Assembly: GCA_964373175.1 (NCBI GenBank)
Contig: CAYJTP010000003.1
Location: 12,177-72,946 of the forward strand
DNA from: an uncultured Planctomycetales bacterium
GTDB lineage: Bacteria > Omnitrophota > Gorgyraeia > Aquiviventales > Aquiviventaceae
Direction: 5' to 3'
DNA: 60,770 nucleotides
How positions within the stretch are numbered: the first letter of the stretch is position 1; each line of letters opens with the position of its first letter. Made by a program: the position numbers and the translations under genes. The notes beneath the pieces are model-generated. The model ran no database searches. It saw only the letters and a list, made by a program, of their open reading frames with translations, and was not told the DNA's origin. Shown here one piece after another: positions 30 through 54,675 of the stretch.

Positions 30-63
30 CCCCGGCCCGCCTTTTGCCAAAGCCGGGGCGGGC
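30..63. repeat. CCCGCC-TTTTG GC-palindrome family member
   Basis: CCCCGGCCCGCCTTTTGCCAAAGCCGGGGCGGGC. Near-identical to 3302-3338. Confidence 0.75.
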
Positions 64-76
64 TGTCATCTGAACG

Positions 77-1372
77 ATGCAAGCGTTACGACAGACTGAT
101 CCAGAAATTTACGAAGCCCTCCAGCGCGAGCTCCAGCGTCAGCACGAGCACCTCGAGCTGATCGCGTCGGAGAACTTTACGAGTCTTTCGGTCTTGGAAG
201 CCCAAGGCTCTGTCCTGACCAACAAGTACGCGGAAGGCTATCCCCACGCGCGCTGGTATGGCGGGTGCGAGTTCGTCGACGTCGCCGAGCAGCTGGCGAT
301 CGACCGCGTCAAGGCGCTCTTCGGCGCTGAACACGCCAATGTCCAGCCCCATTCCGGCACGCAGGCCAACATCGCGGTCTTCTATGCGAGCCTGCAACCG
401 GGTGACAAGATCCTCGCCATGAGTCTGGCCCATGGGGGACACTTGTCGCATGGCCATCCAAAGAATTATTCTGGCAAGTACTTCACGATCGTCCCGTACG
501 GCGTGAACAAGACCACCGAGCAAATCGACTATGACGAGCTTGAAGCCCTAGCCAACGAACATCACCCGAAGATGGTGCTCGCGGGGTATTCCGCGTATCC
601 GCGCGTGTTGGATTTCAAGCGGTTTCGCGAGATCTGCGATCGCGTGGGGGCGATCCTCCTCGTCGACATGGCCCACTTTGCCGGGCTGGTGGCCGCCGGC
701 GTGTATCCCAACCCGACGCCGTATGCGGAGTTTGTCACCTCAACGACCCACAAGACCCTCCGCGGCCCTCGTGGAGGATTTATTTTGTGCAAGCAGCCTT
801 ACGCCAAGGCGATCGATTCGGCCGTCTTTCCCGGCACGCAAGGCGGACCGTTGATGCACGTCATCGCCGCGAAGGCCGTGTGTTTCTTGGAGGCCCAGAC
901 TCCGGCATTCAAAGCGAATCAACGGCAGGTCGTTGCCAACGCGAAAGCGCTGGCGAAGACCTTAGCGGATCGAGGCTATCGCATCGTCTCTGGCGGAACG
1001 GACAACCACTTACTGCTCGTGGACCTGACCCCCAAAGGCCTCACCGGCAAGGAAGCCCAAGAAACCCTCGATCAGGCCAAGATCACCGTCAACAAGAACG
1101 CGATCCCCTTCGATCCGCTTCCGCCCGCCAAGGCCAGCGGGGTCAGGTTGGGGACGCCGGCGGTAACCACGCGCGGGATGAAGGAACGTGAGATGGAGCA
1201 AATTGCCCAGCTCATTGACGAGGCGCTGGCGAACCGGACGGATGCGGGAAGACTTCAAGCCGTTCGCCGCGGAGTGGAGGAGCTCGTCGAGCGGTTTCCA
1301 CTGTACCCTGAGCTGCGGTCAACCGGACGATCAGAAGACAGAAGTCAGAAGACAGACATCAGATCGTCATGA
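77..1372 (+). CDS. glyA: serine hydroxymethyltransferase
   Basis: 431-aa ORF, SHMT-like over its full length, including the PLP-Lys region [15 protein letters not shown]. The last ~20 codons are encoded by a word-repeat hairpin arm. Confidence 0.95.
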
Positions 1373-1439
1373 GCGACTGGGCGTGGGTTATGTGGACTAC
1401 ACCGTCTTCTGTCTTCTGTCCTCTGTCTTCTGTCCTCTG
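1331..1439. repeat. word-repeat hairpin (CAGAAGAC/GTCTTCTG family)
   Basis: Left arm 1331-1364 and right arm 1404-1439, built from 7-9 nt units. The glyA stop lies in the loop. Related copies at 1-29, 22456-22612 and 55579-55654. Confidence 0.8.
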
Positions 1440-3301: not shown

Positions 3302-3338
3302 CCCCGGCCCGCCTTTTGAATCTCAAGCCGGGGCGGGC
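3302..3338. repeat. CCCGCC-TTTTG GC-palindrome family member
   Basis: CCCCGGCCCGCCTTTTGAATCTCAAGCCGGGGCGGGC. Confidence 0.75.
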
Positions 3339-3390
3339 AAGACTCACGACTCAAGTGTTGTGTCTTGGGTCTCGGGTCTTGAGTCCCTCT

Positions 3391-4986: not shown

Positions 4987-5110
4987 CGTGGGGGTATCGT
5001 AGCGTATTCCCGGCATTCCCTCAACTGTCGTCCTTCGACTATCGCTCAGGACTCACCCTGAGCGAGGCCAACGGCCGAGTCGAACGGTACTGTCTCAATT
5101 TGACGTTGAC

Positions 5111-5199
5111 ACCGCAAAATCGCAAAATCCGCAAAGACGCAAAGTCTCTCGGAGACTTCCCGTTGCGCTTTTGCGGTGCTTTTGCGGGCTCTGCGGTGT
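5111..5199. repeat. word-repeat hairpin (CGCAAAAT/TTTTGCGG family)
   Basis: ACCGCAAAATCGCAAAATCCGCAAAGACGCAAAG ... CGCTTTTGCGGTGCTTTTGCGGGCTCTGCGGTG. Confidence 0.75.
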
Positions 5200-5234
5200 G
5201 GTCAAAGTAAGACACCACCAGTCGAACGGGTTCG

Positions 5235-6385: not shown

Positions 6386-6392
6386 CACGGAT

Positions 6393-6445
6393 GAAACCAG
6401 AAACCAGTAACCAGATGTTTTCTCTGGTTTCTGGTTACTGGTTAC
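6393..6445. repeat. word-repeat hairpin (AACCAG/CTGGTT family)
   Basis: GAAACCAGAAACCAGTAACCAGA-TGTTTTC-TCTGGTTTCTGGTTACTGGTTAC, just after the hisG stop. Related words at 48844-48872 and 51517-51566. Confidence 0.8.
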
Positions 6446-6472
6446 GTGGTTCGCATTGAGAGGAGGCGCAAC

Positions 6473-6683: not shown

Positions 6684-8177
6684 ATGGTGACCTCGACGAG
6701 ACTCATCTGGCTGCTGCTTTGCACACTCGGGGTGGGGGGATGCGCCCACGTGCCGTTGCAGAGCAGCCAAGAAGCCAAACGGAATGTGTACGCCTTGTAC
6801 ATGCGCGGGTTGATGCTCGAACGCTCGGCCCATCTGTCCGATGCGCTCGAGACGTATCAGCAGGCCCTGGAGCATGATTATGAGTCACCCTCCCTGTACG
6901 TGCGGATTGGCGCGACCTACGTCAAACTCGGGGAGATTCACCAAGCCCTCAAGTCGTTTCAGCGGGCGCTGACCCTCGATCCCTCTCACCGCGATGCCTT
7001 GCGGTGGGTGGCGATGCTCCACACCTCGCAGGGCGAGCTCGATGAGGCGATCCGCGCGTATGAACGCCTGATCGAGCAAGAGCCCACGGATCGCTTTGTG
7101 CTCAGCACCCTCGCCGATCTCTATGTGCTTCAAGGGCAACTCGAGCAGGCGGCCCACCTCTACGAGCGGCTCATCAAGGAATATGGCTCCTCGTCCCAGT
7201 TGCGCTTCAACCTGGGGGTGCTCTACGGGCGGCTCGGCCAGTACTCCTCAGCCATCCAGGAACTGTCCCGTGCGATGGAGCTGGCGCCCGACTCCATTGA
7301 GATTCGGGTCGTCTTGGGCCTGACCTACGAACTGAACAACCAACTGGACAAGGCCGCCGCGCATTTCGAAGACGCCATCCGCTTGGATCCCTTGAACCCA
7401 CGGCTCTACCTGCATGCTGCCCGGGTCTACGCGAGCCAGCAGCGAACCAAGGAAGCCATCGACGAATACGAGACGGCCTTGGACTTAGCCCCGAATGATC
7501 TCGAGGCACTGTTCGGGCTGGTGCGGTTATGGCTCGTGGACAAACAGTATGCCAAAGCTCAACACGTGATTGGCGAAAAACTTCCGAACGCCGCCCAACC
7601 GGCAGACCTCTATCTGATGCTCGGGGTGGTGTATCGCGAGGCCGACGCCCCGGCGGAAGCGCTGCGGGCGTTTGAACGAGCCGTGGCCCTCAACGGGACG
7701 TCCGCCCAAGCGCACTTCTACCTTGGGGCCCAGCTCGACCGCCTCCAGCGCAAACAGGAAGCCCGGCAGGAACTACGGCGTACGATTGAGCTCGATCCGA
7801 ACCACGCGGATGCGCTCAACTATTTAGGGTACCTCGATGCGGAGGCAGGCGTGAATCTCAAAGAAGCCAAGGCCTTGATCGAACGGGCCGTGGCGCTGGA
7901 TCCTGACAACGGGGCCTATCTCGATAGTCTGGGATGGGTCTCCTACCAACTGGGTGAGCTAGACGAGGCGATCCGCCAGCTTGAGCGCGCCGCCACACTC
8001 TTGGACACGGATCCGACGGTCTTCGATCATCTCGGGGATGCGTATCGGCGGCAAGGCAACCTCAAGAAGGCCCAAGCCGCCTGGGAGAACGCGCTGCGCC
8101 TCGATGCGAGCCTTGAGGTCGTGAAACACAAGCTGGAATCCCTCTTGCATCGGGACGTGATGGCGATTGCCCCATGA
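6684..8177 (+). CDS. TPR-repeat lipoprotein
   Basis: ATG 6684 gives a signal peptide with lipobox-like LGVGGC. More than 10 TPR-like repeats follow. The stop TGA sits in the left flank of IR cassette 2. Confidence 0.8.
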   Translation: MVTSTRLIWLLLCTLGVGGCAHVPLQSSQEAKRNVYALYMRGLMLERSAHLSDALETYQQALEHDYESPSLYVRIGATYVKLGEIHQALKSFQRALTLDPSHRDALRWVAMLHTSQGELDEAIRAYERLIEQEPTDRFVLSTLADLYVLQGQLEQAAHLYERLIKEYGSSSQLRFNLGVLYGRLGQYSSAIQELSRAMELAPDSIEIRVVLGLTYELNNQLDKAAAHFEDAIRLDPLNPRLYLHAARVYASQQRTKEAIDEYETALDLAPNDLEALFGLVRLWLVDKQYAKAQHVIGEKLPNAAQPADLYLMLGVVYREADAPAEALRAFERAVALNGTSAQAHFYLGAQLDRLQRKQEARQELRRTIELDPNHADALNYLGYLDAEAGVNLKEAKALIERAVALDPDNGAYLDSLGWVSYQLGELDEAIRQLERAATLLDTDPTVFDHLGDAYRRQGNLKKAQAAWENALRLDASLEVVKHKLESLLHRDVMAIAP

Positions 8178-8314
8178 TCCCCCCACCTGATGCGGGCTGC
8201 CGAAGGCAGCCCATGCAACGTGGAGTGATGGATGAGAGTGTTGAAATTCGGGTGGGACAACATCTGGTGTGTTGCATTGTCCCGCCTTCGGCGGGACAGC
8301 ATCAGGTGGTGGGA
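8178..8314 (+). repeat. IR-bracketed start-codon cassette, copy 2 (before transketolase N)
   Basis: Arms TCCCCCCACCTG 8178-8189 and CAGGTGGTGGGA 8303-8314. The upstream stop TGA is at 8175-8177. Confidence 0.85.
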
Positions 8315-9144
8315 TGACGAAACCTGATCTCACCGCGTTGCGGCGGCTGGCCGTTGAGTTACGGCAGGACATCTTGACGATGATTGCCAAGGCAGGCAGC
8401 GGCCATCCCGGCGGATCGCTCTCGATGGTGGAACTTCTCATCGGCCTGTACTGGTACGCGCTGCGGCATGATCCCAAGCATCCGTCGTGGCCGGGGCGGG
8501 ATCTCTTCTTGCTGTCGAAAGGTCATGGATGTCCGGCGCTCTATGCGGTCTTGGCGCATCGAGGCTATTTTCCGAAAGAGGAGCTCATGACGCTCCGACG
8601 CTATCCGACCCGATTGCAGGGGCACCCGGAAAAAGATTCGCCGCCAGGGGTGGAGATCGCCTCGGGGTCGCTTGGTCAAGGGCTCTCAATGGCCAACGGG
8701 ATTGCGCTCGCCGATCGCTTGGACGGCCGCACGCGGCGGATCTACTGTCTGCTGGGCGATGGGGAAATTCAGGAAGGCCAAGTGTGGGAAGCGGCGATGA
8801 CCGCCCACCATCACAAGCTGGAGAGCGTGTGCGCGATCATCGATGCGAATCAGTTGCAGCAAAACGGTCCGGTGAAAGAGATTCAAGATATCGAGCCGCT
8901 CGCCGATAAGTGGCGGGCGTTTGGGTGGCATGCGATTGAGATCGACGGCCATGACCTCGTCCGCGTGATCGACGCCTACGATGAGGCGAAGACCATCCGT
9001 GGCAAGCCTCAGGTGATTATCGCGCGAACGGTGAAGGGCAAAGGGGTTTCGTTTATGGAACTCAATCCCGCCTGGCATGGGGTGGCTCCCAAACCCGATG
9101 AATTGGACAAGGCGTTGAATGAGCTGCGGATGGTGAAGGTCTAA
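8314..9144 (+). CDS. transketolase, N-terminal (TPP-binding) subunit
   Basis: GSGHPGGSLS and GDGEIQEGQVWEA motifs. Start taken at the ATG in the right arm of IR cassette 2 (MTKPDLTALRRLA). Confidence 0.9.
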   Translation: MTKPDLTALRRLAVELRQDILTMIAKAGSGHPGGSLSMVELLIGLYWYALRHDPKHPSWPGRDLFLLSKGHGCPALYAVLAHRGYFPKEELMTLRRYPTRLQGHPEKDSPPGVEIASGSLGQGLSMANGIALADRLDGRTRRIYCLLGDGEIQEGQVWEAAMTAHHHKLESVCAIIDANQLQQNGPVKEIQDIEPLADKWRAFGWHAIEIDGHDLVRVIDAYDEAKTIRGKPQVIIARTVKGKGVSFMELNPAWHGVAPKPDELDKALNELRMVKV

Positions 9145-10583: not shown

Positions 10584-10672
10584 TCACGCGACTCTTTTCA
10601 GGGCGTTAGCCTAAAGCGAGTCGGTTTGGCCTAGAACCTAGAACCTTCAACCCAGAGCACGTGGGTGATCTC

Positions 10673-16128: not shown

Positions 16129-16141
16129 CGGGGATGGATGA

Positions 16142-16297
16142 TCCCACCACCTGTCGCCGGTGGCACTTCATGGAGAGGGCTCAATGGTCGATTGCGTTTG
16201 TGCGCCACATGAACCACGTCACGCCACCGTGGCCGGTGAGCAGTTTTCAGGGGGCGGCCAGGGCTCGCGGAACGCGAGCCTGCGCCAGGTGGTGGGA
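16142..16297 (+). repeat. IR-bracketed start-codon cassette, copy 3 (before pth)
   Basis: Arms at 16142-16153 and 16286-16297. ATG at 16297. Confidence 0.85.
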
Positions 16298-16902
16298 TGA
16301 AACTCATCGTGGGCCTTGGCAATGTCGGGCAGCCCTATGAGGGTACGCGACACAATGTGGGTTTCGAGGTGGTCCGGCGACTGGCCAGAACACGCCGGGT
16401 TCAGTGGAAACCGAAATTCAAAGCGCGTGAAACGATCGCACTGTCTGGGGATTGGAAACCCGGCCACGCCGTGGTTCGGCTGTTCCTCCCGCAACTCATG
16501 ATGAATCAGTCGGGGGAAGCGTTGGCCACTGCCGCTGAACGACCGGTCCTTCCTCAGGATATGCTGATTGTGTGTGATGACGTCAATCTCCCCTTGGGGA
16601 CCCTGCGCTTGAGGCCAAAAGGGAGCGACGGGGGGCACCATGGGTTGGCTTCCTGTCTTGAGGTCCTGGGGACCCACGCGGTGGCTCGCTTGCGGATTGG
16701 CGTTGGGGCAATGCCCCTGCCGAGAGACCTGACCGAGTTTGTCTTATCGCCATTCGACGCGCAGGAGCGTCCGACGGTCCATCAGATGATCGAACAGGCT
16801 GCGGTGGCGTGTGAACTGTGGGCGACACAAGGGATTGAGGTGGCGATGAATCGTGTGAACCCCGCCAAATGGCGGGATCATGGGGGCGGGGTGAACGCGT
16901 AA
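16297..16902 (+). CDS. pth: peptidyl-tRNA hydrolase
   Basis: MKLIVGLGNVG..Y..TRHNVGF. The ATG lies in the right arm of IR cassette 3. Confidence 0.93.
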   Translation: MKLIVGLGNVGQPYEGTRHNVGFEVVRRLARTRRVQWKPKFKARETIALSGDWKPGHAVVRLFLPQLMMNQSGEALATAAERPVLPQDMLIVCDDVNLPLGTLRLRPKGSDGGHHGLASCLEVLGTHAVARLRIGVGAMPLPRDLTEFVLSPFDAQERPTVHQMIEQAAVACELWATQGIEVAMNRVNPAKWRDHGGGVNA

Positions 16903-17654: not shown

Positions 17655-17782
17655 GAGTCCGTTTCAAAACCTCCGCTCGTTCAGGGCTCTGGGTTCAGGG
17701 CTCAGGGTAACGGCCCTGAGCCCGCAGCCAAGAGCCGAGGAGGTCGCGTGGCCCATCAGCAGAGCATGAGGAGCTTGAGCAG

Positions 17783-18007: not shown

Positions 18008-18013
18008 ACATGA

Positions 18014-18168
18014 GAAGACTCAAGAAGGCTTTAAAGGGCTTGAGAGGGCCCAGAGGGCAGTATGACCGAGAAACGATCCAATGCCTTCTGGCCTTTTTTG
18101 CCTTCTTACGCCTGCTGTGCCCTCTTGTGATCTTCTCAAGTCTTCTTGAGCCTTCTCAAGCCTTCTCC
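18014..18168. repeat. word-repeat hairpin (CTCAAGAAGGC/GCCTTCTCAAG family)
   Basis: Fills the rpsR-rplI spacer. The arms are made of CTTGAGA/TCTCAAG-type units. Confidence 0.7.
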
Positions 18169-18170
18169 TA

Positions 18171-18624: not shown

Positions 18625-18732
18625 ATTGCGGATTGTGCCCGCCTGCCCCACGACCCAAGGAGCGGGCAGGGAATGCGGATTGCGGATTGAATAATCTCTC
18701 AAATCCAAAATCGACAATCCAAAATCCGCAAT
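18625..18732. repeat. word-repeat hairpin (GCGGATT/AATCCGC family)
   Basis: Lies in the rplI-dnaB spacer. Same word family as 54676-54742. Confidence 0.75.
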
Positions 18733-22437: not shown

Positions 22438-22455
22438 CACAAGGAGATCAGATGG

Positions 22456-22612
22456 CAGAGGTCAGAGGTCCCTGCCCGCCCCTCGGATCACAGGGCAGGC
22501 GGGAGAAGTCAGAGATCAGAGGACAGAAAGCAATGATCAGGACGAGGCGCTCACGTTCGCCGTGGTTTGTCTGTCTTCTGTCTGCTGTCGTCTGCTGTCT
22601 GTTGTCTGTTCC
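22456..22612. repeat. word-repeat hairpin enclosing the skp start codon
   Basis: CAGAGGTCAGAGGTC..core..AGAAGTCAGAGATCAGAGGACAG (5' UTR) pairs with GTCTGTCTTCTGTCTGCTGTCGTCTGCTGTCTG (codons 12-27). Confidence 0.75.
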
Positions 22613-23093
22613 TTGTTCCCCGTCTGACGCCGCCGACACAAAAATTGGCTACGTGGATCTGGCGCGGGTTTTTGATGGGTATCAGCGGACGAAGGAATCC
22701 GACCAGGTCTTAGAACAAACCAGCAAGCAGAAACAAACCGAGCTGGAGGGTCGCGTGAACGAGCTGAAGAAACTGCGCCAGAACCTCGAGCTCCTCAACG
22801 ACCAAACCAAGGAGGCCAAGGCCAGGGAAATCGAAGAGAAGTCTGACGAGTTTCAACGCCTGAAGACGCGCACCGAACGGGAGCTCGTGCGCAAGCGCAA
22901 CCAGCTCGCCAAGGACATCCTCGATGAAATTCAGCAGACGGTGACGGAGTACGCCAAAGCGAACGGGTTTTCGCTCGTCCTGGATCAACGCTCCTTGTTG
23001 TATGGCCAGGATGCCTATGATGTGACCGACGATGTGCTGAAACTCCTGAACAGTCGCTACGCGACGAAAACCAGCAAATCGGATAAGCGCTAG
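22533..23093 (+). CDS. skp: OmpH/Skp family periplasmic chaperone
   Basis: Signal peptide followed by KIGYVDLARVFDGYQRTKE and a coiled-coil region. The signal-peptide codons are a word-repeat hairpin arm. Confidence 0.8.
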   Translation: MIRTRRSRSPWFVCLLSAVVCCLLSVPCSPSDAADTKIGYVDLARVFDGYQRTKESDQVLEQTSKQKQTELEGRVNELKKLRQNLELLNDQTKEAKAREIEEKSDEFQRLKTRTERELVRKRNQLAKDILDEIQQTVTEYAKANGFSLVLDQRSLLYGQDAYDVTDDVLKLLNSRYATKTSKSDKR

Positions 23094-25274: not shown

Positions 25275-26114
25275 ATGCCTGATGCGTGTGCGGTGATCGC
25301 GGGAGCTGGCTCGTTTCCCCGTCATGTGGCGCAGGAAGCCAGACGCCAAGGCCTGACGGTGGTGGGGATCGGGCTTCAAGGCTGGGTCGATCGTGACTTT
25401 GCTCAGCATGTCGATGTGTATGAGGAGATCGCGATTGGGCAACTGAAACGCCTCATCGACCGGCTGGATGCTCACCACGTGCGCCAAGCCGTGATGGCGG
25501 GGAAAGTCACGAAAGAAATCTTGTTTGATTCGCGCGTCCGCTTCGATCCTGAGGCCCTGGGCATTGTGACGCATGTGAAGGAGTTTTCCGTCAACGCGCT
25601 GTTGGGGGCGCTGGCTGCGCGTCTTGCCAAGGCCGGGATCACGTTGCTGGATTCCTCGACGTTCCTCAAGCCCAACCTCTGCCCGAAGGGCGTGTTGACC
25701 AGGCGGGAACCGACGCATGAGGAGCAGGAAGACATCCGCCTGGGAATGCAGGCCGCTCGGCACCTCGCGCAGTTGGATATCGGCCAGACCGTCGTCGTGA
25801 AGCATCGGGTCGTCGTGGCGGTCGAGGCCTTGGAAGGGACCGACGCGGCCATTCAACGAGCCGGCCACCTGGCCGGGCGGGACCTCGTCGTCATCAAGAT
25901 GGCCTCCCCCACCCAAGACATGCGCTTCGATCTGCCCATCCTTGGTCCCCAGACCATCGCGGTGGCCATCGCCTCGGGGGTTCGGTGTCTGGCGGTGGAA
26001 GCCGCAAAGACGCTGCTGCTTGAACGAGACGCGCTGATCGCCCACGCCGACGACGCTAACCTCAGTCTCGTGGGCGTTGAAATCCCTGATCCGGTGCACA
26101 CGGATCGGACATGA
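25275..26114 (+). CDS. lpxI: LpxI family (DUF1009) UDP-2,3-diacylglucosamine hydrolase
   Basis: AVIAGAGSFP...DIGQTVVVKHRVVVAVEALEGTDAAIQRAG. The stop TGA sits in the left flank of IR cassette 4. Confidence 0.78.
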   Translation: MPDACAVIAGAGSFPRHVAQEARRQGLTVVGIGLQGWVDRDFAQHVDVYEEIAIGQLKRLIDRLDAHHVRQAVMAGKVTKEILFDSRVRFDPEALGIVTHVKEFSVNALLGALAARLAKAGITLLDSSTFLKPNLCPKGVLTRREPTHEEQEDIRLGMQAARHLAQLDIGQTVVVKHRVVVAVEALEGTDAAIQRAGHLAGRDLVVIKMASPTQDMRFDLPILGPQTIAVAIASGVRCLAVEAAKTLLLERDALIAHADDANLSLVGVEIPDPVHTDRT

Positions 26115-26256
26115 TCCCCCCACCTAGCTTCCCCCCCGGCTGTCGCCGGCGTCGGGCCGGGGGGGCCGACCTCGTGGGAAGCGAAGTATTGATTCGCCTT
26201 CCCGCCGTTGGCGGGATCCGCCAGAGGCGCGATCGGCGAATAGACAGGTGGGGGGA
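26115..26256 (+). repeat. IR-bracketed start-codon cassette, copy 4 (before rhomboid)
   Basis: Arms TCCCCCCACCTA 26115-26126 and CAGGTGGGGGGA 26245-26256. The upstream stop TGA is at 26112-26114. Confidence 0.8.
26131..26165. repeat. GC palindrome shared with 36593-36624 (opposite orientation)
   Basis: CCCCCCCGGCTGTCGCCGGCGTCGGGCCGGGGGGG. Its reverse complement matches 36593-36624 with 1 mismatch over 32 nt. Confidence 0.8.
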
Positions 26257-26936
26257 TGATCCCGGTTCGTGATACCATTCCCTCCAACCGCACCGCGTGG
26301 GTGGTTCGCGCCGTGCTCCTGGCCAACGTTGGGCTGTTCTTCCTGGAGTTGCGGCAAGGCGCTGCGGTTGAGACGATGCTCTATCGGTTTGGGGTCGTGC
26401 CGGCCGACTGGGAGTTGAGTACCCTCCACGACGTCTTCCAATGGCCTCGGCTGATCGGGACGCTGATCACCTCGCAGTTTCTGCATGGTGGCTTGCTGCA
26501 TTTAGGATCCAATATGCTCTATCTCTGGATCTTCGGGGACAACGTTGAGGATCTGTTAGGGCACGGGCGCTTCCTGTTGTTGTATCTCGGCAGCGGCATC
26601 GCGGCGGGGCTGGTCCAGTTGGCGATGCAGCCGCAAGCGACGGTGCCGATGATTGGCGCAAGCGGGGCGATCGCCGGCGTGTTGGGGGCGTATTTCCTGT
26701 TGTTCCCGTTTGCCCGGATCGTCACGCTCATTCCCTGGTTTTTCTTCTGGCAGTTCGTGGAGCTCCCGGCGTTTGTGTTTTTAGGATTCTGGTTTGTCCT
26801 CCAGTGGCTCCAAGGGATGACGACGATTGGCCAGATGGTCCATCTGGGCGGAGTGGCGTGGTGGGCCCATGTCGGGGGATTCGTTGGCGGACTGGTCTTT
26901 GCGGTGAATCTGCGCCCTCGCCGACGCTATTTTTAA
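26256..26936 (+). CDS. rhomboid family intramembrane serine protease
   Basis: FLHGGLLHLGSNMLYLWIFG and GASGAIAGVLGAY motifs, 6 TM helices. The ATG lies in the right arm of IR cassette 4. Confidence 0.85.
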   Translation: MIPVRDTIPSNRTAWVVRAVLLANVGLFFLELRQGAAVETMLYRFGVVPADWELSTLHDVFQWPRLIGTLITSQFLHGGLLHLGSNMLYLWIFGDNVEDLLGHGRFLLLYLGSGIAAGLVQLAMQPQATVPMIGASGAIAGVLGAYFLLFPFARIVTLIPWFFFWQFVELPAFVFLGFWFVLQWLQGMTTIGQMVHLGGVAWWAHVGGFVGGLVFAVNLRPRRRYF

Positions 26937-31214: not shown

Positions 31215-31302
31215 TATACGGGCACCACAGGCGTTCAGCAAGTCTTCCAACTGTTTTCCACGTGGCATCTTGGGTATACTTGACGCGTTGGAGGGATCAT
31301 GA

Positions 31303-31451
31303 TCCCACCACCTGTGCCGGCCCCGCCTCTCGGCGGGGCCCGAATGCCAACACAGGTTCGTGAGGTGTGGATCATGGGTCAGCCGCTGCATTCGTCGCGG
31401 CGGTGATGTCGGCGAGACTCCGCAAGCCGCCGTAAGGCGCAGGTGGTGGGA
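31303..31451 (+). repeat. IR-bracketed start-codon cassette, copy 5 (before glpK)
   Basis: Arms at 31303-31314 and 31440-31451. ATG at 31451. Confidence 0.85.
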
Positions 31452-32935
31452 TGATTCTGGCCATTGACCAAGGCACAACCGGAACCAGCGTGTTGGCGTT
31501 CGACCGCAAGGGTCGGGTCATCGCCCAGGGCTATGAGGAACTGCCCCAATATTTTCCCAAGCCGGGCTGGGTGGAACATGATCCAGAGGACATGCTGGCT
31601 GTGACCCTGCGGGTGATCAAGCGGACGCTTGACCGCGCCCATCTTCGCGCCACACAGCTTCTCGCTATCGGGATCACGAACCAGCGCGAGACGACCGTGC
31701 TCTGGGATCGGCGGACCGGACGGTCCGTGGCCAAGGCAATCGTGTGGCAGTGCCGGCGGACCGCCCCGATGTGTGAACGCTTGAAACGCCGTGGCCTTGA
31801 ACCGACAGTGCGTCGCAAGACGGGTCTGGTCCTCGATGCCTATTTTTCAGGCACCAAGGTGCGCTGGTTCCTCGACAATCTCCGAGGACTTGCCGCACGA
31901 GCGAAGCGGGGCGAGATTGCCTTCGGCACCGTCGACAGCTGGCTGCTCTGGCACTTGACCGGCGGCCGCATCCATGCCACGGACTACACGAATGCCTCGC
32001 GCACCCTGCTGTATAACATCCGCGCCTTGAGCTGGGATGACGACCTGCTGCGAATGTTCGCCATCCCGCGCACGCTCCTTCCAGCCGTGAAGTCGTCCAG
32101 CGGGCTCTTCGGGACCACGACGCGCATCGGGCCCCTTGCTGCAGGGATCCCGATTGCCGGAATCGCGGGTGACCAACAAGCTTCCCTGGTGGGCCACGGA
32201 TGCCTTGAGGCGGGCGATGCCAAAAACACCTACGGCACGGGATGTTTTCTCCTGCTGCAGACGGGCGCTCGCGTCGTGCTGAGTCGGCACGGGCTCATCA
32301 CGACCTTAACCTACGGGGGAAGGGAGTCGCCAAGCTATGCCTTGGAAGGCAGCGTCTTTATTGCCGGTGCCGCGATTCAATGGTTGCGGGACGGCCTGAA
32401 GGTGATCAAGACCGCCGCCGAAACGGAAGGAATCGCCAAGGGCGTCAAGAGTACCGGCGGGGTCTATGTGGTTCCTGCATTTGTGGGACTGGGCGCGCCC
32501 TATTGGGACATGCACGCGCGAGGAGGGATTGTCGGCCTCACCAGGGGGACGACTCGAGATGTGCTGGTGCGCTCGACGTTGGAGTCGCTCGCCTATCAGA
32601 CCCGTGACGTCGTGGAGGCGATGCAGCGCGATAGCGGCATCCGTCTCAAGCGACTTCAGGTCGACGGGGGCGCAGCCCGCAATAACTGGCTCATGCAGTT
32701 TCAGGCGGATCTGTTGGGGATTGACGTCGTGCGGCCCGCGCTGGTGGCCAATACCGCCAAGGGCGCGGCGTTGTTGGCCGGGATCGCCATGGGGTGGTGG
32801 GATCCAAGACGGCTGTCGACCTTGATGGGTGCGCCTGAGCGGATCTTTCGTCCACGGATGAACGCCCAAGAGCGCCAACGCCTGTACGCAGGGTGGCACG
32901 AGGCGGTTCAGCGGATGCGAACGCAGCGTCGGTAA
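31451..32935 (+). CDS. glpK: glycerol kinase
   Basis: MILAIDQGTTGTS...GITNQRETTVLWD. The ATG lies in the right arm of IR cassette 5. Confidence 0.95.
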   Translation: MILAIDQGTTGTSVLAFDRKGRVIAQGYEELPQYFPKPGWVEHDPEDMLAVTLRVIKRTLDRAHLRATQLLAIGITNQRETTVLWDRRTGRSVAKAIVWQCRRTAPMCERLKRRGLEPTVRRKTGLVLDAYFSGTKVRWFLDNLRGLAARAKRGEIAFGTVDSWLLWHLTGGRIHATDYTNASRTLLYNIRALSWDDDLLRMFAIPRTLLPAVKSSSGLFGTTTRIGPLAAGIPIAGIAGDQQASLVGHGCLEAGDAKNTYGTGCFLLLQTGARVVLSRHGLITTLTYGGRESPSYALEGSVFIAGAAIQWLRDGLKVIKTAAETEGIAKGVKSTGGVYVVPAFVGLGAPYWDMHARGGIVGLTRGTTRDVLVRSTLESLAYQTRDVVEAMQRDSGIRLKRLQVDGGAARNNWLMQFQADLLGIDVVRPALVANTAKGAALLAGIAMGWWDPRRLSTLMGAPERIFRPRMNAQERQRLYAGWHEAVQRMRTQRR

Positions 32936-35865: not shown

Positions 35866-36036
35866 ATACCACAGAACCACAGAACGGCCACAGAAGCCCA
35901 GAGAGATCCCGACGAGGATTCTCTGTGTCTCTGCGCCTGCCCGCCCCTCGTTTACCCGCGGCAGGCAGGGAATTTCCGCCACACTGCTTGGCGGATCCGC
36001 CAAGCTTTTTGGCGGACTGTGTCCTCTGTGGTGTGA
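35866..36036. repeat. composite word-repeat hairpin (CCACAGAA/TTCTGTGG family)
   Basis: Flanked by an 11-bp direct repeat AAAAAGGAGGT (35833-35843 and 36059-36069). Same word family as 37531-37631. Confidence 0.75.
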
Positions 36037-36395: not shown

Positions 36396-36674
36396 GTGCT
36401 CGTGACGTCCAAGACCGTTCGCGTCGGTCAGGTTGCCGTCGTTGCCGCCATTGGGTTCCTCAGTTGTGCGCAAAGTCTCCCGGATCACGCGAAGGTTATT
36501 CGGGTCATCGACGGGGACACCATCGAGCTCGCGGATGGACGGCTCGTGCGCTATATCGGGATTGATACGCCGGAGTTTCGACGTTGGGCCCGCCCCCCCG
36601 GCCCGACACCGGCGACAGCCGGGGCGAACGGCGGGCCGGGGCGACTCGCTAGTGCTTCGACAGCATTGACATGA
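36396..36674 (+). pseudogene. truncated thermonuclease (SNase-like) lipoprotein gene
   Basis: A signal/lipobox-like N-terminus, then VIRVIDGDTIEL.DGRLVRYIGIDTPE. The SNase fold then stops and the frame runs into a GC palindrome (36593-36624). No remainder of the domain is seen downstream. Confidence 0.45.
36593..36624. repeat. GC palindrome shared with 26131-26165
   Basis: CCCCCCCGGCCCGACACCGGCGACAGCCGGGG. Sits at the truncation point of the SNase-like ORF. Confidence 0.8.
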
Positions 36675-36701
36675 GGGGTCCAGGGGCTCCATCCTGTCGA
36701 A

Positions 36702-36801
36702 GCAGTCCATAGTCAAGAGTCCATAGTCGATAGTCAGACGAAACAACCAGGACTGCAACTCGTTGTTGGCTATGGACTACAGACTATGGACGATCGACTG
36801 C
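36702..36801. repeat. word-repeat hairpin (CCATAGTC/GACTATGG family)
   Basis: GTCCATAGTCAAGAGTCCATAGTCGATAGTC ... GGCTATGGACTACAGACTATGGAC. Confidence 0.75.
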
Positions 36802-36875
36802 TCCGTCCACGCCCCGCGAGGGTAACTTAGAGTCATGCGGATCGCCCGACTACGCAAATCAAAGTGGACGGAGCA

Positions 36876-37262: not shown

Positions 37263-37513
37263 ACGACCTCCTGATATTTCTGGCTATTGTGACAGGCGGT
37301 GACCACTTGTCAAGTGGAGCTCCACCCCGCCACGGCGGGGTGGCACCCTGCAACCACGCCCCGCGTGGGGCGACATCCCGCCCACGCGCACGATGCGGCC
37401 ACGCGGGCCCACGGCCGAAGGCCGTGGCCCGATGGCGGGGTCGACCGCAGGGATGGCCGATCCATGATCCGGCGGACGGATTGGGATCCCAACGGTACCA
37501 TCGCGTCGGTAGT

Positions 37514-37642
37514 GTCCTAATTTCAGCCGTCACACCACAGAAGCACAGAACGCCACGGAGGCACAGAGCGCGTCTTCCTGCAACCGCCTCTGTGTTTCTG
37601 TGGGATTTCGTGTCTCTGTGGTGTCACAGAGCAAGTTAGGAC
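37514..37642. repeat. word-repeat hairpin with 7-bp terminal inverted repeats GTCCTAA/TTAGGAC
   Basis: Flanked by a 14-bp direct repeat GGTACCATCGCGTC (37494-37507 and 37643-37656). Confidence 0.8.
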
Positions 37643-37719
37643 GGTACCATCGCGTCACGGATAGCGGACGGAGCCTTCCCCTTCGAGTATAATAGTATCC
37701 CCAAGTTCCCGACGGAACC

Positions 37720-39177: not shown

Positions 39178-40463
39178 TGACGCCTCCTCGGGGCCCAGCG
39201 CGGTTGATCTGGCTGTGCCGGGCGGCGGCTGTTGGGTTCTGCGTGTCCGGGTTGACGCTGTGTCCCCACGCAGCCTCCGCAGAGCCCCTCGTTGTGGGGA
39301 CGGCCAAACTTGACCTGATCCCTCCGGTGAAGACGCCGCTGGCTGGCTACAGCCGGCGCAAAGGGCGGCTGGCGACCGGCGTCCATGATCCACCCTTTGT
39401 GCGGGTGGTGGCGATCCACGCTGACGACACGACTGTCGCACTGGTGAGTTGCGATCTGCTCGTGATCGACGAACGGCTCTTCGATGCGGTCAAGACCCGG
39501 TTTCAAGCCACCGAACCACACCGGCCGATCCATCTCCTGCTTGCAGCGACCCATACCCACTCCGGTCCTGGAGCCTATGGACAGAAGTGGTTGGAAAAAA
39601 TTTCGATGGGGCACTTTGATCCGGTCGTCTTTGAGTTCCTCGCCTCGCGCATCGCCCAAGCCATTTCCACGGCCTTGGCAAAGATGCAGCCGGTGACCAT
39701 GAGCGATGCCGCGACGATGACCACCGGGTTGGTCACAAACCGCATGCGTCCTGACGGCGTGGTGGATCCTGAGTTGAGCGTCGTCGCATTTCTGGATGCG
39801 CAGCGTAACCCGGTTGCTGTGGTGGTGGATTTCAGCGCCCATCCGACGACGTTGGGAGCCTGGAACACCTTACTGAGCGCAGATTATCCGGGTGTGTTGG
39901 CCCAGCAGATTGAGCAGCGCTATCCAACGTCGGTGTGCCTGTTTCTGGCTGGCGCGGTGGGGGATCAAGGCCCGGTCAAACAGGGAGAGGGGTTCGACCG
40001 GCCCACGTGGCTCGGGACGGAGTTAGCAACGCACGTCTCAGTGTTGGTCGATCAGTCCCATCCAGAGCCTGTGCCGTCAGTCTTCGTGGAGCAGCGCGTC
40101 GTGCGCCTCCCCCCGGCGCATCTTCGCCTCGGATCCGTGTTGCTGCCGTCGTGGTTCAGCCAACCGTTCGTCGATGACGACGCGACGCTCACCGTCATCG
40201 CCATTGGTCCGGTGCTCCTCATGGGTGTCCCGTGTGATTTCAGTGCCGAACTGGGCCTGACGCTCAAATCGTATGCTCGCGAGAAAGGCTTTCGGCCTCT
40301 TGTGGTTGGGTTTGCCAATGACTACATCGGCTACTGCTTGCCAGAACGGTGGTATCGGACGCAGGCGTATGAAGCCATGCTGGCGTTTAATGGCCCGAGG
40401 ACGGGTGAGCTGCTCGTCGAGACGCTCAAGCAGATGATCGATCAACTTGCGAGTGATGAGTGA
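39177..40463 (+). CDS. neutral/alkaline ceramidase-like secreted hydrolase
   Basis: Signal peptide, then GTAKLDLIPPVKTPLAGY...VVAIHADD...ATHTHSGPG. The final codons SDE-stop are word-repeat sequence. Confidence 0.65.
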   Translation: MTPPRGPARLIWLCRAAAVGFCVSGLTLCPHAASAEPLVVGTAKLDLIPPVKTPLAGYSRRKGRLATGVHDPPFVRVVAIHADDTTVALVSCDLLVIDERLFDAVKTRFQATEPHRPIHLLLAATHTHSGPGAYGQKWLEKISMGHFDPVVFEFLASRIAQAISTALAKMQPVTMSDAATMTTGLVTNRMRPDGVVDPELSVVAFLDAQRNPVAVVVDFSAHPTTLGAWNTLLSADYPGVLAQQIEQRYPTSVCLFLAGAVGDQGPVKQGEGFDRPTWLGTELATHVSVLVDQSHPEPVPSVFVEQRVVRLPPAHLRLGSVLLPSWFSQPFVDDDATLTVIAIGPVLLMGVPCDFSAELGLTLKSYAREKGFRPLVVGFANDYIGYCLPERWYRTQAYEAMLAFNGPRTGELLVETLKQMIDQLASDE

Positions 40464-40629
40464 TGAGTGCCCGCCCCCCCGGCCCGCCGAAAGCGTCCGC
40501 CGGGGCGGGCGGCGATCGCCAGAGGCGGGCCGGGGATGAGTGATGAGTGACAAACAGCCTTACGCTATTTATCGTTGGGCGCTCATGATCGTAGTTGCTG
40601 CACTCGTCACTCACCACTCGTCACTCACC
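40451..40629. repeat. word-repeat hairpin (GTGATGA/TCACTCAC family) with GC-palindrome core
   Basis: GAGTGATGAGTGATGAGTG ... GATGAGTGATGAGTGAC ... CTCGTCACTCACCACTCGTCACTCACC. Spans the ceramidase-like stop and the C45 start. Confidence 0.75.
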
Positions 40630-41790
40630 ACGGCGGAAGCTGCTCGCTTGGAAGTCCACGAGGGCTTGCCCGTGGCCTACCTGGAAGGCACCCCCTACGA
40701 ACTGGGATACCAACACGGGCAGCTTCTCAGAGACACGGTCCAACACGCGGTCGCGCAGATCCTGGGATACTTCAGGGGGTATCCGAAGCTTCCCCTGCTC
40801 GGAAGCCTTGCGATCAATTGGTGGCTGGATCGGCCGTGGAAGCAAGCCCTGCCCTTTATCCCGGCGGAGGACCTTGAGGAGCTGCGCGGGCTCGCCGATG
40901 CATCAGGGGTGCCGCTGCGTGAACTCTGGCGCCTCCACGCGATTCCCGATCGTACGTACGCTTGTTCCAGCCTGGCCGTGTGGGGGCAGGCGACCGTCGA
41001 TGGGCGGCTCATCCACACGCGGAATCTCGACTGGAATATCGATGCCGGGATCCAGCGCTACGCGGTCGTCTTTGTCGTCAAACCCAAGGGAAGACACGCG
41101 TATGTGAACCTCGGCTGGGCTGGGTTCATTGGTGTGTTGACTGGCGTCAACGACCAGCGCATTTCGATTGGCCAGGTGGGGGCGGAGACGACGGACTTGT
41201 CGTATCGGGGACTGCCCATGACGTTCGTGATGCGCAAGGCGCTTGAAGAGGCAGGCGGTCTCGATGAGGCGATCCGCGTGATTCAAGCAGCCCCCAGAAC
41301 GGTCGGCGTGAATTATGTCGTGGCTGACGCGAAGGTCCCGAGGGCGGTTGCGATTGAGACGACCCGGCAACTCGTCAGCGTGTTTGGGGCGAATGATCCG
41401 AGGGAACGCGCCGTGTCGTATGCGCGGCCGATCGCGGATTGCGTCTTTCGAGCCGATACCGCCATGGATCCACAGATTCGTGATCGGCAGCTCGCCTCGG
41501 ATGGCAAGCCGAGCATTCCTGGACTTGAACCGCCAGGCGGGTCTGCCTATGAGGTGCGGTATTTAGGCCAAGCGGCGGGAATCTCAGCCCACTATGGCCG
41601 GATCACTGTCCAGGTCGCCACACAGATCGCGAAGACTGTTGCGCCGAGCTCGAACATCCAGAGCGTGATTGTGGCCTGGCCTGAGGTGTGGGTGGCCAAC
41701 GCCCAAGGAACGACGCCCGCAGCTCGGATGACCTACCATCGGCTTGATCTTGAGCAGTTGTTTGCCACGACGCCGGCTACTCGCCAATAA
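40543..41790 (+). CDS. C45-family (acyl-CoA:6-APA acyltransferase-like) Ntn peptidase
   Basis: Signal peptide, then ..[26 protein letters not shown] (nucleophile Cys context). Confidence 0.65.
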
Positions 41791-43403: not shown

Positions 43404-44633
43404 TTAGTCCCCAGCCCAACCACCCTTGCCACTACTACTACCTCCGCTGGAGCTGCCACCGCTTGAGCTTGAGGAGCTGCTTGAGCTTGAGGAGCTGCTT
43501 GAGCTTGAGGAGTTCGTCACGTCGACAAAATCAGGAAGTCCATCACCCCCACTGCTGCCCCCGCGGTTGCCCCAGAAATTGACCACGATCTTGGCCAGGG
43601 TCGGGCTGAAGTTCACAGGGTTATTGTCCACTCGCTTGTCATATAACGCATAGCCCCCCGCGCCTTCTGCGACTGGCGCGCCAGCCGGCCGGTTCATCGT
43701 GACCTTCTTCACCACGGCGGCGCCTTGGAACCAATGGCCTTCGATCACCATCGGCATGGTGGGGGCATAGATCAACGCGGCGGTCCGGCCCGTCTGGCCT
43801 CCATTGCCGCCCTTCAGGACGATGGCATCGTCACTGCCTGGACGCGGCTTGGCAAAAATCCTCAAGTTCTCAGCCCGATAGCGCTTCGGGTGGTTCGGGT
43901 CCGGATTGGGATCGTTCGAGTGCTTGCCGTAGAGAAAGCTGTTGTCTACGAGAATGGGGCCCTCCACGTACAAATCCACCGGATTGCCGTCGGTGCGCAG
44001 GATGGCCCCGTTGGTCAGCGAAATCCACGTCGCATAGTACGTGATCGCGTAGGTTCTTCGATCAATGACGACCGTGCCTCCCGGCAGAATGACCGGTACG
44101 CCTCCACTCAGGACGAGTTCATTATTCACTGCCCCAGGAATCTGATGGACAAAGCCGGTGATCGCCGTAGGCACCTTAACAGGAGCCAGCTCAGGCATGT
44201 CGAGAGTCTTGCGTTGTCCGTCCCACGTGCTGTTACTCGTCGTGACCACCGAGGAAATAGGTGGAGCCTCATCCTTTAAGAAAATGTCGCCCTTGAGGCG
44301 CGATTGCTCCAACAGTTGAATCGTGGTGGGGGTGGCCGCCTGGGTCGACGCTAAGGCCATCGAACTTTTTTCCGAGCTGACCCCCCCGTCCGAACTGGAT
44401 CCGCCGCTGGAACTCGAACTGCTACTCGATCCACCGCTGGAGCTCGAACTACTACTCGATCCCCCACTCGAACTCGAGCTTGAACTTGAGCTTGAACTTG
44501 AGCTTTCCCCCATGCCACCTCCTGCGAGGGCAAGAGGAATCGTTGCGACGAGCAACACCAGGACCATCGCCAGGTGGAGAAAGGTAATCGCCGATTGACG
44601 CATCACACGTGTCTCGTTCGTCACTGTTCTCAT
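43404..44633 (-). CDS. secreted Ser-rich protein homologous to the C-terminal body of the large PilX-like protein
   Basis: Start taken at MRTVTNE, 4 nt after the upstream stop. Signal peptide and poly-Ser/Gly tracts. The block DLYVEG...NLRIFA...ALIYAP...GAAVVKK aligns with DLYITG...NLRIFV...AVVYAP...GAVVAKQ of 45493-47610. Confidence 0.55.
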   Translation of the reverse strand: MRTVTNETRVMRQSAITFLHLAMVLVLLVATIPLALAGGGMGESSSSSSSSSSSSSGGSSSSSSSSGGSSSSSSSSGGSSSDGGVSSEKSSMALASTQAATPTTIQLLEQSRLKGDIFLKDEAPPISSVVTTSNSTWDGQRKTLDMPELAPVKVPTAITGFVHQIPGAVNNELVLSGGVPVILPGGTVVIDRRTYAITYYATWISLTNGAILRTDGNPVDLYVEGPILVDNSFLYGKHSNDPNPDPNHPKRYRAENLRIFAKPRPGSDDAIVLKGGNGGQTGRTAALIYAPTMPMVIEGHWFQGAAVVKKVTMNRPAGAPVAEGAGGYALYDKRVDNNPVNFSPTLAKIVVNFWGNRGGSSGGDGLPDFVDVTNSSSSSSSSSSSSSSSSSGGSSSGGSSSGKGGWAGD

Positions 44634-44637
44634 GGGA

Positions 44638-45294
44638 TTAATTCCCTGATCCTCCCCCACTGGAACTCCCGCTGCTTGAGCTCCCGCTGCTTGAGCTCCC
44701 GCCGCTTCCGATTCCTTCGCCGAGGTGGCCGACCACCCCGGAGTGGGCTTCGATGGAGTCGAGGGCGAAGATCGCGTGTTTAAAGGTATAGACAGGCTTT
44801 CGCCGCTCAATCTCTCCGGCGATGAGGTGGGTGGCCTGCCTAGTCCCCTTGCTGGCTGTACCTTGGCTGACAATGCGGTAGCGATCGAACTGTCCGGTTT
44901 GGCGATCGGCGAGACAAATCTGGTAGGTGGTGCTGAGCGCGTTGTTGAGAAGGAACAGAGCCTGTGAGGTGATGCAACTGGCTTCGCAGTTGGTACGTCC
45001 GTCGCGTCGGCATTGTGGGTTGTCCTTTAAGGGGGTCGTGAGGGTGTCTGGAGGATTCCATAAGAGGCTGTTGAAGGCCAGATCAAGACCCGTTTCCGAG
45101 GTCCAGAAGGCCTGGCTGAGATCGACGGTGCGTTCGGATGTCCGGAGATCCTGGGTGCTGCGGGTGAGCATGGCGGTTGAGAGCGCCACGATCCAGATGA
45201 CCAGAAAGTAGCAGTAGCCGAGGAGGGCAAACCCGCCCTCCGACTGCAGCAGGGAACAGCGGTGTGTTCGAGCCTGACAGGTTGTGTGCGTCAT
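44638..45294 (-). CDS. PilX N-terminal domain (type IV pilus minor-pilin-like) protein, short form
   Basis: MTHTTCQARTHRCSLLQSEGG/FALL prepilin-like leader, a hydrophobic helix, and QAFWTSETGLD. The first 25 codons are identical to those of 45493-47610. Confidence 0.6.
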   Translation of the reverse strand: MTHTTCQARTHRCSLLQSEGGFALLGYCYFLVIWIVALSTAMLTRSTQDLRTSERTVDLSQAFWTSETGLDLAFNSLLWNPPDTLTTPLKDNPQCRRDGRTNCEASCITSQALFLLNNALSTTYQICLADRQTGQFDRYRIVSQGTASKGTRQATHLIAGEIERRKPVYTFKHAIFALDSIEAHSGVVGHLGEGIGSGGSSSSGSSSSGSSSGGGSGN

Positions 45295-45313
45295 CTCTCG
45301 CCTTCGGCAGCCC
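45220..45313. repeat. 94-bp perfect direct repeat, copy A
   Basis: Identical to 47536-47629. Covers 19 nt of leader plus codons 1-25 of the short PilX-like gene. Confidence 0.95.
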
Positions 45314-45331
45314 AACCACCCTTCGGGTGGC

Positions 45332-45380
45332 GTTTACAGTTTACCGTGTACCGTTCACCGTACACCGTTCACGGTACACC
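45332..45380. repeat. word-repeat element (ACCGTACAC family)
   Basis: GTTTACAGTTTACCGTGTACCGTTCACCGTACACCGTTCACGGTACACC, in the leader of the short PilX-like gene. Confidence 0.7.
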
Positions 45381-45393
45381 GCCCGTTGGGTTT

Positions 45394-45425: not shown

Positions 45426-45492
45426 GCCTTTCTCGTGTGCGAGCCTTCCTTGGAAATAGCAAGGGAACAGATGATTCGTGGGACGGCGTTCA

Positions 45493-54670: not shown

Positions 54671-54675
54671 AAGGT

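Follow-up and report, generated by a model that had tools for sequence, protein, structure and literature searches.

Tandem repeats with a seven-nucleotide unit have been described between the genes of several groups of bacteria. In cyanobacteria, the 7-bp short tandemly repeated repetitive (STRR) elements form hairpins in such places, for example between hupS and hupL, and have been proposed to act on transcript stability or translational coupling (PMC2670836). Two species of Xanthomonas carry 186 and 183 arrays of the word GGGAATC, with 70 and 75 convergent pairs; the arrays are 89-93% intergenic, stand at a mean distance of 28 nt from the upstream open reading frame (ORF), vary between species and have no known function (Rehm et al. 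2015, PMC4692102). The over-representation of heptamers among bacterial simple sequence repeats, along with a slippage hypothesis, is on record as cited in PMC4692102. The TAACTGA heptamers of Beggiatoaceae, cyanobacteria and Bacteroidetes are likewise intergenic; they stand in 2-6 copies beside start codons, with 1 inverted in 170 (PMC4679880). Hairpins of the repetitive extragenic palindromic (REP) type protect RNA 3' ends without terminating. In 2015, Liang, Rudd and Deutscher reportedly found the upstream gene to be translated less when a REP stands no more than about 15 nt from the stop codon. As to STRR sequences, those described by Mazel in 1990 are said to comprise a few genome-wide words, mostly in direct arrays, in heterocystous cyanobacteria, and a title by Vioque from 1997 reportedly places them inside the RNase P RNA gene. 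The present study concerns a 60,770-nt stretch of DNA (hereafter, the window) from contig CAYJTP010000003.1 of assembly GCA_964373175.1, an uncultured bacterium labelled Planctomycetales, and the hairpins that it contains (H1 to H18). Their arms are tandem arrays of complementary words, and the word changes from locus to locus while the architecture stays the same.

The original prediction, made from the letters of the window, had proposed just such an architecture for nearly every intergenic spacer. A census of arrays (at least three units, period 5-12, self-match of at least 75%), followed by a search for a reverse-complement match no more than 250 nt away, was run on the window and on 20 dinucleotide-preserving shuffles of it; this replaced pairing by Tandem Repeats Finder consensus units, which was too strict and returned only 6 pairs. 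The window holds 36 arrays, against 1-12 (about 7) per shuffle, and 16 of them have a reverse-complement partner within range, against 0 in each of the 20 shuffles. Although units of 7-9 nt had been announced, the words are essentially heptamers: 25 of the 36 arrays have a period of 7 nt, 3 a period of 8 and another 3 a period of 9-12, with 2.1-6.7 copies, and Tandem Repeats Finder commonly reports 14-nt double units among the heptamer arrays. More than 10 distinct words occur in the 60-kb window, and the 52 heptamer loci of the lineage carry about 40. The units combine a conserved 4-nt core with variable positions, as in CAGA+NNN, and the cores differ wholly between loci (CAGA, ACCAG, GGATT, GGTG, AGTC, GAGTG). 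Only one word, the GGGCTCA of H6, contains a G3 tract.

When the minimum free energy (MFE) of the RNA was compared with that of shuffles, 9 of the 12 hairpins folded gave z-scores between -3.5 and -7.1, and three folds were weak (2621-2675, 51515-51568 and 45329-45382). Predicted RNA stem-loop energies range from -20 to -100 kcal/mol across the hairpins. No word-hairpin was matched by Rfam at the gathering score, which in the window recovered only one tRNA and two cyclic di-GMP (c-di-GMP-I) riboswitches. Clear word-hairpins were confirmed at 14 of the 18 loci originally listed; the remainder are an arm cut by the window edge (1-29), a lone array (48844-48872) and two weak or partial hairpins (51517-51566 and 45332-45380), and one hairpin with the word GGGCTCA (17684-17736) had been overlooked. 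All 16 paired arrays sit in spacers or at gene edges, some arms reaching into gene termini. In support of the original prediction, a hand count on the ORF list has about 18 of about 32 spacers of at least 40 nt occupied.

The anatomy is well illustrated by H2 at the glyA-nrdR junction (1332-1438, originally placed at 1331-1439). Its left arm (1332-1363) consists of CAGAAGA units and its right arm (1404-1439) of GTCTTCT and GTCCTCT units. On the plus strand, 1331-1439 reads as the units TCAGAAG, ACAGAAG, TCAGAAG, ACAGACA and TCAGA, a loop of about 40 nt, and then GTCTTCT twice, GTCCTCT, GTCTTCT, GTCCTCT and a final G. Both arms show periods of 7 and 14 in Tandem Repeats Finder, and an inverted-repeat finder scores them as 92% complementary over 25 nt. 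The RNA has an MFE of -49.3 kcal/mol against -36.2 ± 3.7 in shuffles (z = -3.5), none of the 200 shuffles being as stable. The left arm encodes the last 13 residues of serine hydroxymethyltransferase (SHMT), whose stop codon (1370-1372) lies in the loop. The hairpin is flanked by a direct repeat, GGACGAT (1325-1331 and 1439-1445), and is adjacent to a small element with terminal inverted repeats (TIRs). Removing both yields a glyA that ends in ...ELRSTGR*, with its TGA overlapping the nrdR ATG. The related loci L004 and L007 have this ATGA stop/start overlap, L005 has its nrdR ATG within the glyA frame, and L003 has a small CAGAAGT-type hairpin at the equivalent place. The segment 1325-1559 therefore looks like two successive insertions, H2 and the TIR element, that split a formerly overlapping glyA-nrdR junction and gave SHMT a 13-residue tail.

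We favor, at somewhat better than even confidence, a reading of these hairpins as palindromic heptanucleotide microsatellites, each arm having grown by slippage from a short stem-loop, tolerated where constraint is low and REP- or STRR-like in the transcript. The seed could be envisioned as a short stem-loop, whether it lay in a spacer, at the edge of a gene or within an RNA loop. Replication slippage would lengthen each arm separately, in steps of 7 nt or sometimes of 8-10, with 14-nt double units common, and would produce a long and imperfect hairpin with complementary word arrays for arms. Both arms would evolve fast and largely independently, and the word would drift in place, leaving related or different words in orthologous spacers. 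Co-transcribed within operons as stable RNA stem-loops, the hairpins might act like REP or STRR sequences, as a barrier to 3' exonucleases or as a processing site. By looping out the insert, they would also keep the upstream stop and the downstream start near each other and so preserve translational coupling. The anatomy, the statistics, the placement, the independence of the arms, their turnover, the coding overlap and the phylogenetic spread are results of the analysis; slippage as the generator, like these consequences at the RNA level, is what we infer.

The two arms match by word, not unit by unit: shuffling the order of the right-arm units did not lower complementarity to the left arm in any of 10 hairpins. 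H15 (50058-50136; z = -7.1), a hairpin of 8-nt words between two minus-strand genes that possibly falls in the N-terminal region of a lipoprotein, has four perfect AGTGGCGA units in its left arm and a diverged right arm with a constant G.T mismatch in every unit, which shows homogenisation within an arm to outpace any exchange between arms. Turnover can be followed at the bamA-skp site, where the window carries H9 (22448-22619), a CAGAGGT hairpin past the bamA stop. The orthologous site in 14 relatives holds a full hairpin in 7, a left array alone in 1 (L109) and nothing of the kind in 6. The word there is CAGAAGT in L083 and L085, CAGAGAC in L084, GACAAGC in L088 and, without a partner arm, in L109, GGGCTCN in L086 and GGGGCAN in L097. 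The CAGA-type words cluster in one BamA clade, and the pattern fits inheritance with drift of the word. Between L086 and L087, whose flanking genes are 99.1% identical, one hairpin spacer has been rearranged and its word changed from CGTCGTT to CGCTCGT; hairpins thus evolve much faster than their surroundings. The words were not found to derive from the flanking sequence, a relation that the original prediction had put forward for checking: of 11 matches (3.2 expected), 10 fall on the borders of H6 and H17 and are attributed to array boundaries.

Arms also intrude into sequence that is read or folded, so that the hairpins are not strictly intergenic as first described; besides the SHMT C-terminus, they overlap the Skp signal peptide, two further N-terminal signal regions and a riboswitch loop. 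No stop interrupts the skp frame anywhere along the bamA-skp hairpin in the window, in L083 or in L085, and the first unit (CAGATGN) holds the ATG. From this ATG, the purine-rich left arm encodes the charged n-region and the pyrimidine-rich right arm the hydrophobic core of the Skp signal peptide, as in L083 (MTEVRNQKSEVRGQRSGN-AVICHLFSVFCLLMSVFCPLV-QA|GELKIGY). N-terminal signal regions likewise hold H15, H13 and a lone array. H13 (40447-40631), a GAGTGAT hairpin with a nested GC hairpin (40477-40535), runs over the upstream stop (40463) and has the downstream ATG (40543) within its second left array, and its right arm encodes part of an N-terminal hydrophobic segment. The lone array, unpaired and built of ACCAGGA units (48837-48873, minus strand), lies in frame in the gene at 47914-48906, within its N-terminal signal region. 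In the riboswitch at 45303-45438 (minus strand), the GGTGNAC heptamers of H14 (45331-45380, minus strand; a weak or partial hairpin, z = -2.0) account for the greater part of the 56 nt by which the second stem's terminal loop is expanded. Arms in the SHMT tail, the signal regions and the riboswitch loop indicate that the arrays occupy every kind of insertion-tolerant sequence, as a mutational or selfish process would produce. We count the array in the riboswitch stem loop and the arms in the SHMT tail and signal peptides in favor of seeding at hairpin tips and of a spread limited by tolerance.

Some features around these riboswitches are recorded here in their own right. The second c-di-GMP-I riboswitch lies at 47619-47784 (minus strand; 49.5 bits, against 54.6 for the first), and its second-stem terminal loop is also enlarged, by 90 nt, in the form of an irregular hairpin with a 13-bp stem. 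Both precede genes whose products are repeat-rich and have a DUF7305 match, one directly (45493-47610), the other before 44638-45315 and then 43404-44873. The two minus-strand genes downstream of the riboswitches contain long in-frame tandem repeats of 18, 30 and 36 nt (43461-44707 and 46131-46674), in up to 4.9 copies, some of them 100% identical. The repeat proteins are probably secreted or surface proteins under c-di-GMP control.

Most hairpins lie in co-directional spacers; two spacers are divergent and one is convergent. Every spacer of the ssb-rpsR-rplI-dnaB and bamA-skp string holds one. The ssb-rpsR spacer contains H6 (17684-17736, z = -6.0); the rpsR-rplI spacer is filled by H7 (18011-18169), made of words of about 10 nt (CTCAAGAAGGC) and running from 4 nt past the rpsR stop to 2 nt before the rplI ATG; and the rplI-dnaB spacer has H8 (18625-18732, z = -4.3), with the word GCGGATT. 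Of the 13 co-directional cases, 9 have a hairpin that overlaps the upstream stop or begins no more than 14 nt from it, and hairpins often reach the next start. H17 (54674-54741, z = -5.9), also of the word GCGGATT, extends from 4 nt past the upstream stop to 8 nt before the next ATG. H18 (55579-55658, z = -4.7), a CAGACNT hairpin, begins 3 nt past the upstream stop and holds the next ATG (55655) in its last unit. A Shine-Dalgarno (SD) sequence is absent from all three genes whose ATG abuts a hairpin (rplI and those starting at 54749 and 55655) and present in all three whose ATG is at least 25 nt away, although the sample is small.

Strong GC-containing stem-loops just past stop codons might be taken for Rho-independent terminators or attenuators, a role that the original prediction had put forward for mapping. 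The evidence makes it very unlikely, and we reject it. No T-run follows any of the word-hairpins. Terminator-like sites in the window are at the level of shuffles (24 against 17.2, 18 against 15.3 and 19 against 16.1), and the terminator pattern is matched only by two short inner stem-loops, in H5 and H10, with no whole word-hairpin called. Many hairpins stand between genes of the one conserved ssb-rpsR-rplI-dnaB-bamA-skp string, several include either the start codon of the following gene or some of its coding sequence, and one lies in a riboswitch aptamer loop.

The pattern is neither confined to the window nor a product of assembly. The host is a diderm bacterium with 60% GC, and its closest SHMT relatives (76-79%) are metagenome-assembled genomes labelled Omnitrophota or Planctomycetales. 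Relatives at the family level match or exceed the window in paired arrays, those found through BamA (64-75% identity) having up to 0.65 per kb where the window has 0.26, and the same architecture recurs in loci of Vicinamibacterales and other Acidobacteriota, in Verrucomicrobiota and in distant lineages with 41-53% GC. Across these unrelated words and phyla the 7-nt period recurs. It could be argued that low-complexity reads had been misassembled, and Logan contigs do end at or next to hairpins and TIR elements, L001 at 5114 and L002 at 2699, as well as at window positions 1493 and 1547; some contigs end exactly at hairpins, which indicates that the repeats break short-read assemblies. However, two projects with four sequencing runs between them yielded six Logan contigs (L001, L002 and L163-L166) that match the window with 100% identity across H3 and H6-H8, and in other metagenomes different species have homologous hairpins at corresponding sites. 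The likelihood of an artefact is therefore negligible. As a comparison of strains, the six identical contigs speak only against an artefact.

Several observations weigh against growth by slippage in place. There is no copy-number variation of the arrays among those six contigs, nor other direct evidence of slippage. Simple slippage leaves the near-equal lengths of the two arms and the period of 7 unexplained. Stability shows no consistent sense-strand bias, being better in sense for 6 hairpins, better in antisense for 5 and equal for 3, and G.U pairs number 54 on the plus strand against 44 on the minus strand; given this lack of bias, selection at the RNA level is not demonstrated. Other points concern copying between sites. 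Word sharing was scored by pair counts against letter-shuffled words in 200 randomisations, single linkage at no more than one mismatch having been dropped because it chained nearly all words. Identical canonical words occur in 13 locus pairs, some at non-orthologous sites, where 2.3 would be expected and the maximum in the randomisations was 7; hence the word varies, as predicted, but it is not different at every locus, and word families come back above chance both inside a genome and from one genome to another. The left arm of H8, minus its GC insert, is identical at 31 of 31 positions to an arm of L083 (686-718) that belongs to the ssb-rpsR hairpin, a different spacer. H2 resembles an insertion with a 7-nt flanking repeat at the former glyA-nrdR overlap. 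H12 (37508-37642), a CACAGAAG hairpin in a divergent spacer, has a 14-nt direct repeat, GGTACCATCGCGTC, at 37494-37507 and 37643-37656, and its ends carry GTCCTAA/TTAGGAC. The shared arm, the shared words and these flanking repeats hint at copying between sites, and the repeats at H2 and H12 may reflect some mobility of hairpins.

These points raise the possibility that the hairpins are non-autonomous mobile elements of a kind with REPINs or miniature inverted-repeat transposable elements (MITEs), their word families being copies inserted by a trans-acting enzyme and their arrays sub-terminal binding-site repeats. That other small elements clearly move in this genome, including a REP-like insert missing from a copy in L083 and the TIR element with its 4-bp duplications, and that excising H2 with its neighbor rebuilds the overlap seen in L004 and L007, lends the idea some substance. 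We nevertheless consider it unlikely. Apart from H2 and H12, flanking direct repeats of 33 hairpins from all loci follow the null, so that general target-site duplication is not apparent. Within a word family, loops and termini are not conserved, only the word being common to members, and units within an arm can trade places. For the more than 10 word families found in 60 kb, many enzymes would be required, or a single one that reads structure only. The absence of words from the flanks also counts against insertion, and persistence at orthologous sites with drifting words fits evolution in place. The original contrast with REP sequences, bacterial interspersed mosaic elements (BIMEs) and MITEs thus stands, as there is neither a conserved full-length sequence nor general target-site duplication.

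The GC core that was originally noted inside many hairpins is indeed present in several, as a separate element of about 33 nt nested in the left arm. Such REP-like elements fall into two subfamilies, CCTGCCCGCC-N12-GGGCAGGCGGG and CCCCGGCCCGCC...GCCGGGGCGGGC, found in the window (32-63, 3304-3338, 18638-18670, 22471-22503, 35936-35969, 36589-36639 and 40477-40535) and in relatives (L083 at 1499, 2947 and 9340, L097 at 416, L109 at 1443). Their halves are ordered A-B...A'-B', so that two alternative helices are possible. In H8 (33 nt, 18638-18670), H9 (22471-22503), H13 and L109 the element sits within the left array with the 7-nt phase kept. The L083 copy of the GCGGATT arm has neither the element nor any trace of a duplication, and the element is therefore an independent insertion.

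The TIR element is a third kind of small sequence in the window. It is 112-158 nt long and present in six copies (1447-1558, 8177-8315, 16141-16298, 26114-26257, 31302-31452 and 53138-53280), with terminal inverted repeats TCCCACCACCTG / CAGGTGGTGGG and a 4-bp flanking direct repeat that is ATGA in five copies and ATGG in one. In all six, the right-hand repeat supplies the downstream ATG (nrdR, the transketolase N-terminal gene, pth, the rhomboid gene, the FGGY kinase gene and the gene at 53279), and in at least two the left-hand ATGA retains the TGA stop of the upstream gene. The element also occurs in the relatives L084, L091 and L092, and in relatives that lack it glyA and nrdR overlap at ATGA. 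By these features it looks like a MITE aimed at start codons or stop-start overlaps that restores both codons, and its GGTGGTGGG is a possible SD sequence.

Units with a conserved core and variable positions, which are also seen in the (GGGANTN)n arrays of Xanthomonas, and a 7-nt period that persists across unrelated words and phyla could mean that a protein reads the 7-nt register. The hairpin would then be a binding platform, competing with the sites or presenting them, for a single-strand binder of the cold-shock or OB-fold type or, at the DNA level, for a nucleoid or gyrase-type binder as for BIMEs. CspB offers a precedent in that it binds heptamer repeats with one protein per unit (as cited in PMC4679880). 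Such a platform seems quite improbable, because cores that are wholly different between loci suit no sequence-specific protein, periods of 8 and 10 nt occur too, and no candidate gene is linked to the hairpins. More far-reaching is the conjecture that the hairpins, far from being passive microsatellites, are both product and substrate of a dedicated structure-reading process working in 7-nt steps, for example hairpin-primed templated synthesis or a hairpin-recognising enzyme, that builds inter-cistronic stem-loops, copies them between sites and maintains them across several phyla. We hold this to be rather unlikely. If it were true, the hairpins would make up a general layer at the post-transcriptional level, holding the stop and start codons of operons clamped to each other, and could be recruited as coding sequence, as the arms in the Skp signal peptides of three species would exemplify.

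The remaining members of the series are as follows. At the start of the window, the truncated right arm of a CAGA-type hairpin, with TCTGTCC units (H1, 1-31), is followed by the REP-like GC hairpin at 32-63, upstream of glyA. H3 (2623-2673), with a GGTNNAC word, lies between two response-regulator genes and is weak (z = -1.6). H4 (5110-5200, z = -5.8) is a hairpin of 8-nt CGCAAAAT words in the divergent spacer between a SurA-like gene and hisG, and H5 (6391-6452, z = -5.3), with the word AACCAGA, begins 6 nt past the hisG stop. H10 (35866-36036) is a composite CCACAGAA hairpin around the REP-like element at 35936-35969 and further inner palindromes, H11 (36701-36802, z = -5.6) a CCATAGTC hairpin in a convergent spacer, and H16 (51517-51566, z = -1.4) a weak hairpin of ACCAG words. 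Two direct heptamer arrays have no complementary partner and might represent members of the class that have decayed or have one arm only: a TTGGGTC-type array (3355-3385) in a convergent spacer beside a REP-like element, and a CCTAGAA-type array (10629-10653) upstream of the gene at 10661. A repeat with a 9-nt period (GAGAAACCT-type) at the 3' end of the L25 gene (16062-16114), which encodes a Lys/Glu-rich tail of the EKPEK type, was rejected from the class as a true coding repeat.

That heptamers are over-represented in bacteria has been known since 2007, still without a mechanism or function. The present lineage offers an extreme and tractable case: a single genome uses many words, most operon spacers hold a hairpin, orthologous sites can be tracked from species to species, and arms reach into a riboswitch loop, a protein tail and signal peptides. 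This makes the origin of the 7-nt step, the matching of the arms, and coupling or mRNA stabilisation testable. There are practical consequences as well. The hairpins break short-read assemblies and fragment metagenomes of the lineage, they mislead ORF callers (several of the listed ORF starts run through hairpins), and they inflate the apparent intergenic RNA structure in metagenome screens.

The hairpins had been presented as a superfamily unlike anything known. This cannot be upheld, as both the STRR hairpins (PMC2670836) and the convergent GGGAATC pairs of Xanthomonas (PMC4692102) precede them. Like the hairpins of the window, STRR sequences are tandem, non-coding 7-bp units able to form hairpins between co-transcribed genes. 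Their reported presence in the RNase P RNA gene parallels the array in the riboswitch loop. They are said, however, to be few-worded, mostly direct and cyanobacterial, whereas here more than 10 words are found in 60 kb, systematically inverted, in a non-cyanobacterial host. The Xanthomonas arrays share conserved and variable unit positions, as in (GGGANTN)n, an arrangement in inverted pairs in about three quarters of cases, and a mostly intergenic location near the 3' end of the upstream ORF, as well as under-representation between divergent genes and variation in length and sequence between close species. They are dominated by one G-rich, quadruplex-capable word, in contrast to the many words found here, mostly without such capacity, and the reports on them describe neither the coding overlap nor the nested REP-like inserts that are present here.

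The other known systems are more distant. REP sequences, BIMEs and REPINs are likewise extragenic palindromes just downstream of genes and in operons, forming RNA stem-loops, but a REP is conserved in sequence over about 35 nt and is served by a dedicated RAYT transposase, whereas word-hairpins have no conserved sequence or defined ends. The 30 window proteins scanned include no transposase. The nested 33-nt GC hairpins, being conserved repeated palindromes, are the better REP analogue. MITEs have a fixed target duplication and conserved terminal repeats and interior; word-hairpins lack general duplication, the order of their units is interchangeable and their loops are unrelated. An intrinsic terminator combines a GC stem with a U-tract, which word-hairpins do not have. 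TAACTGA repeats are likewise intergenic heptamer arrays, but of a single word, nearly always direct, and placed before starts rather than after stops. Three things are new here: how many different words are used, which lineages host them and that arms overlap coding sequence; the nested REP-like inserts are a further difference. In all, the system extends to many words a kind of heptamer-repeat hairpin already described in cyanobacteria and Xanthomonas.

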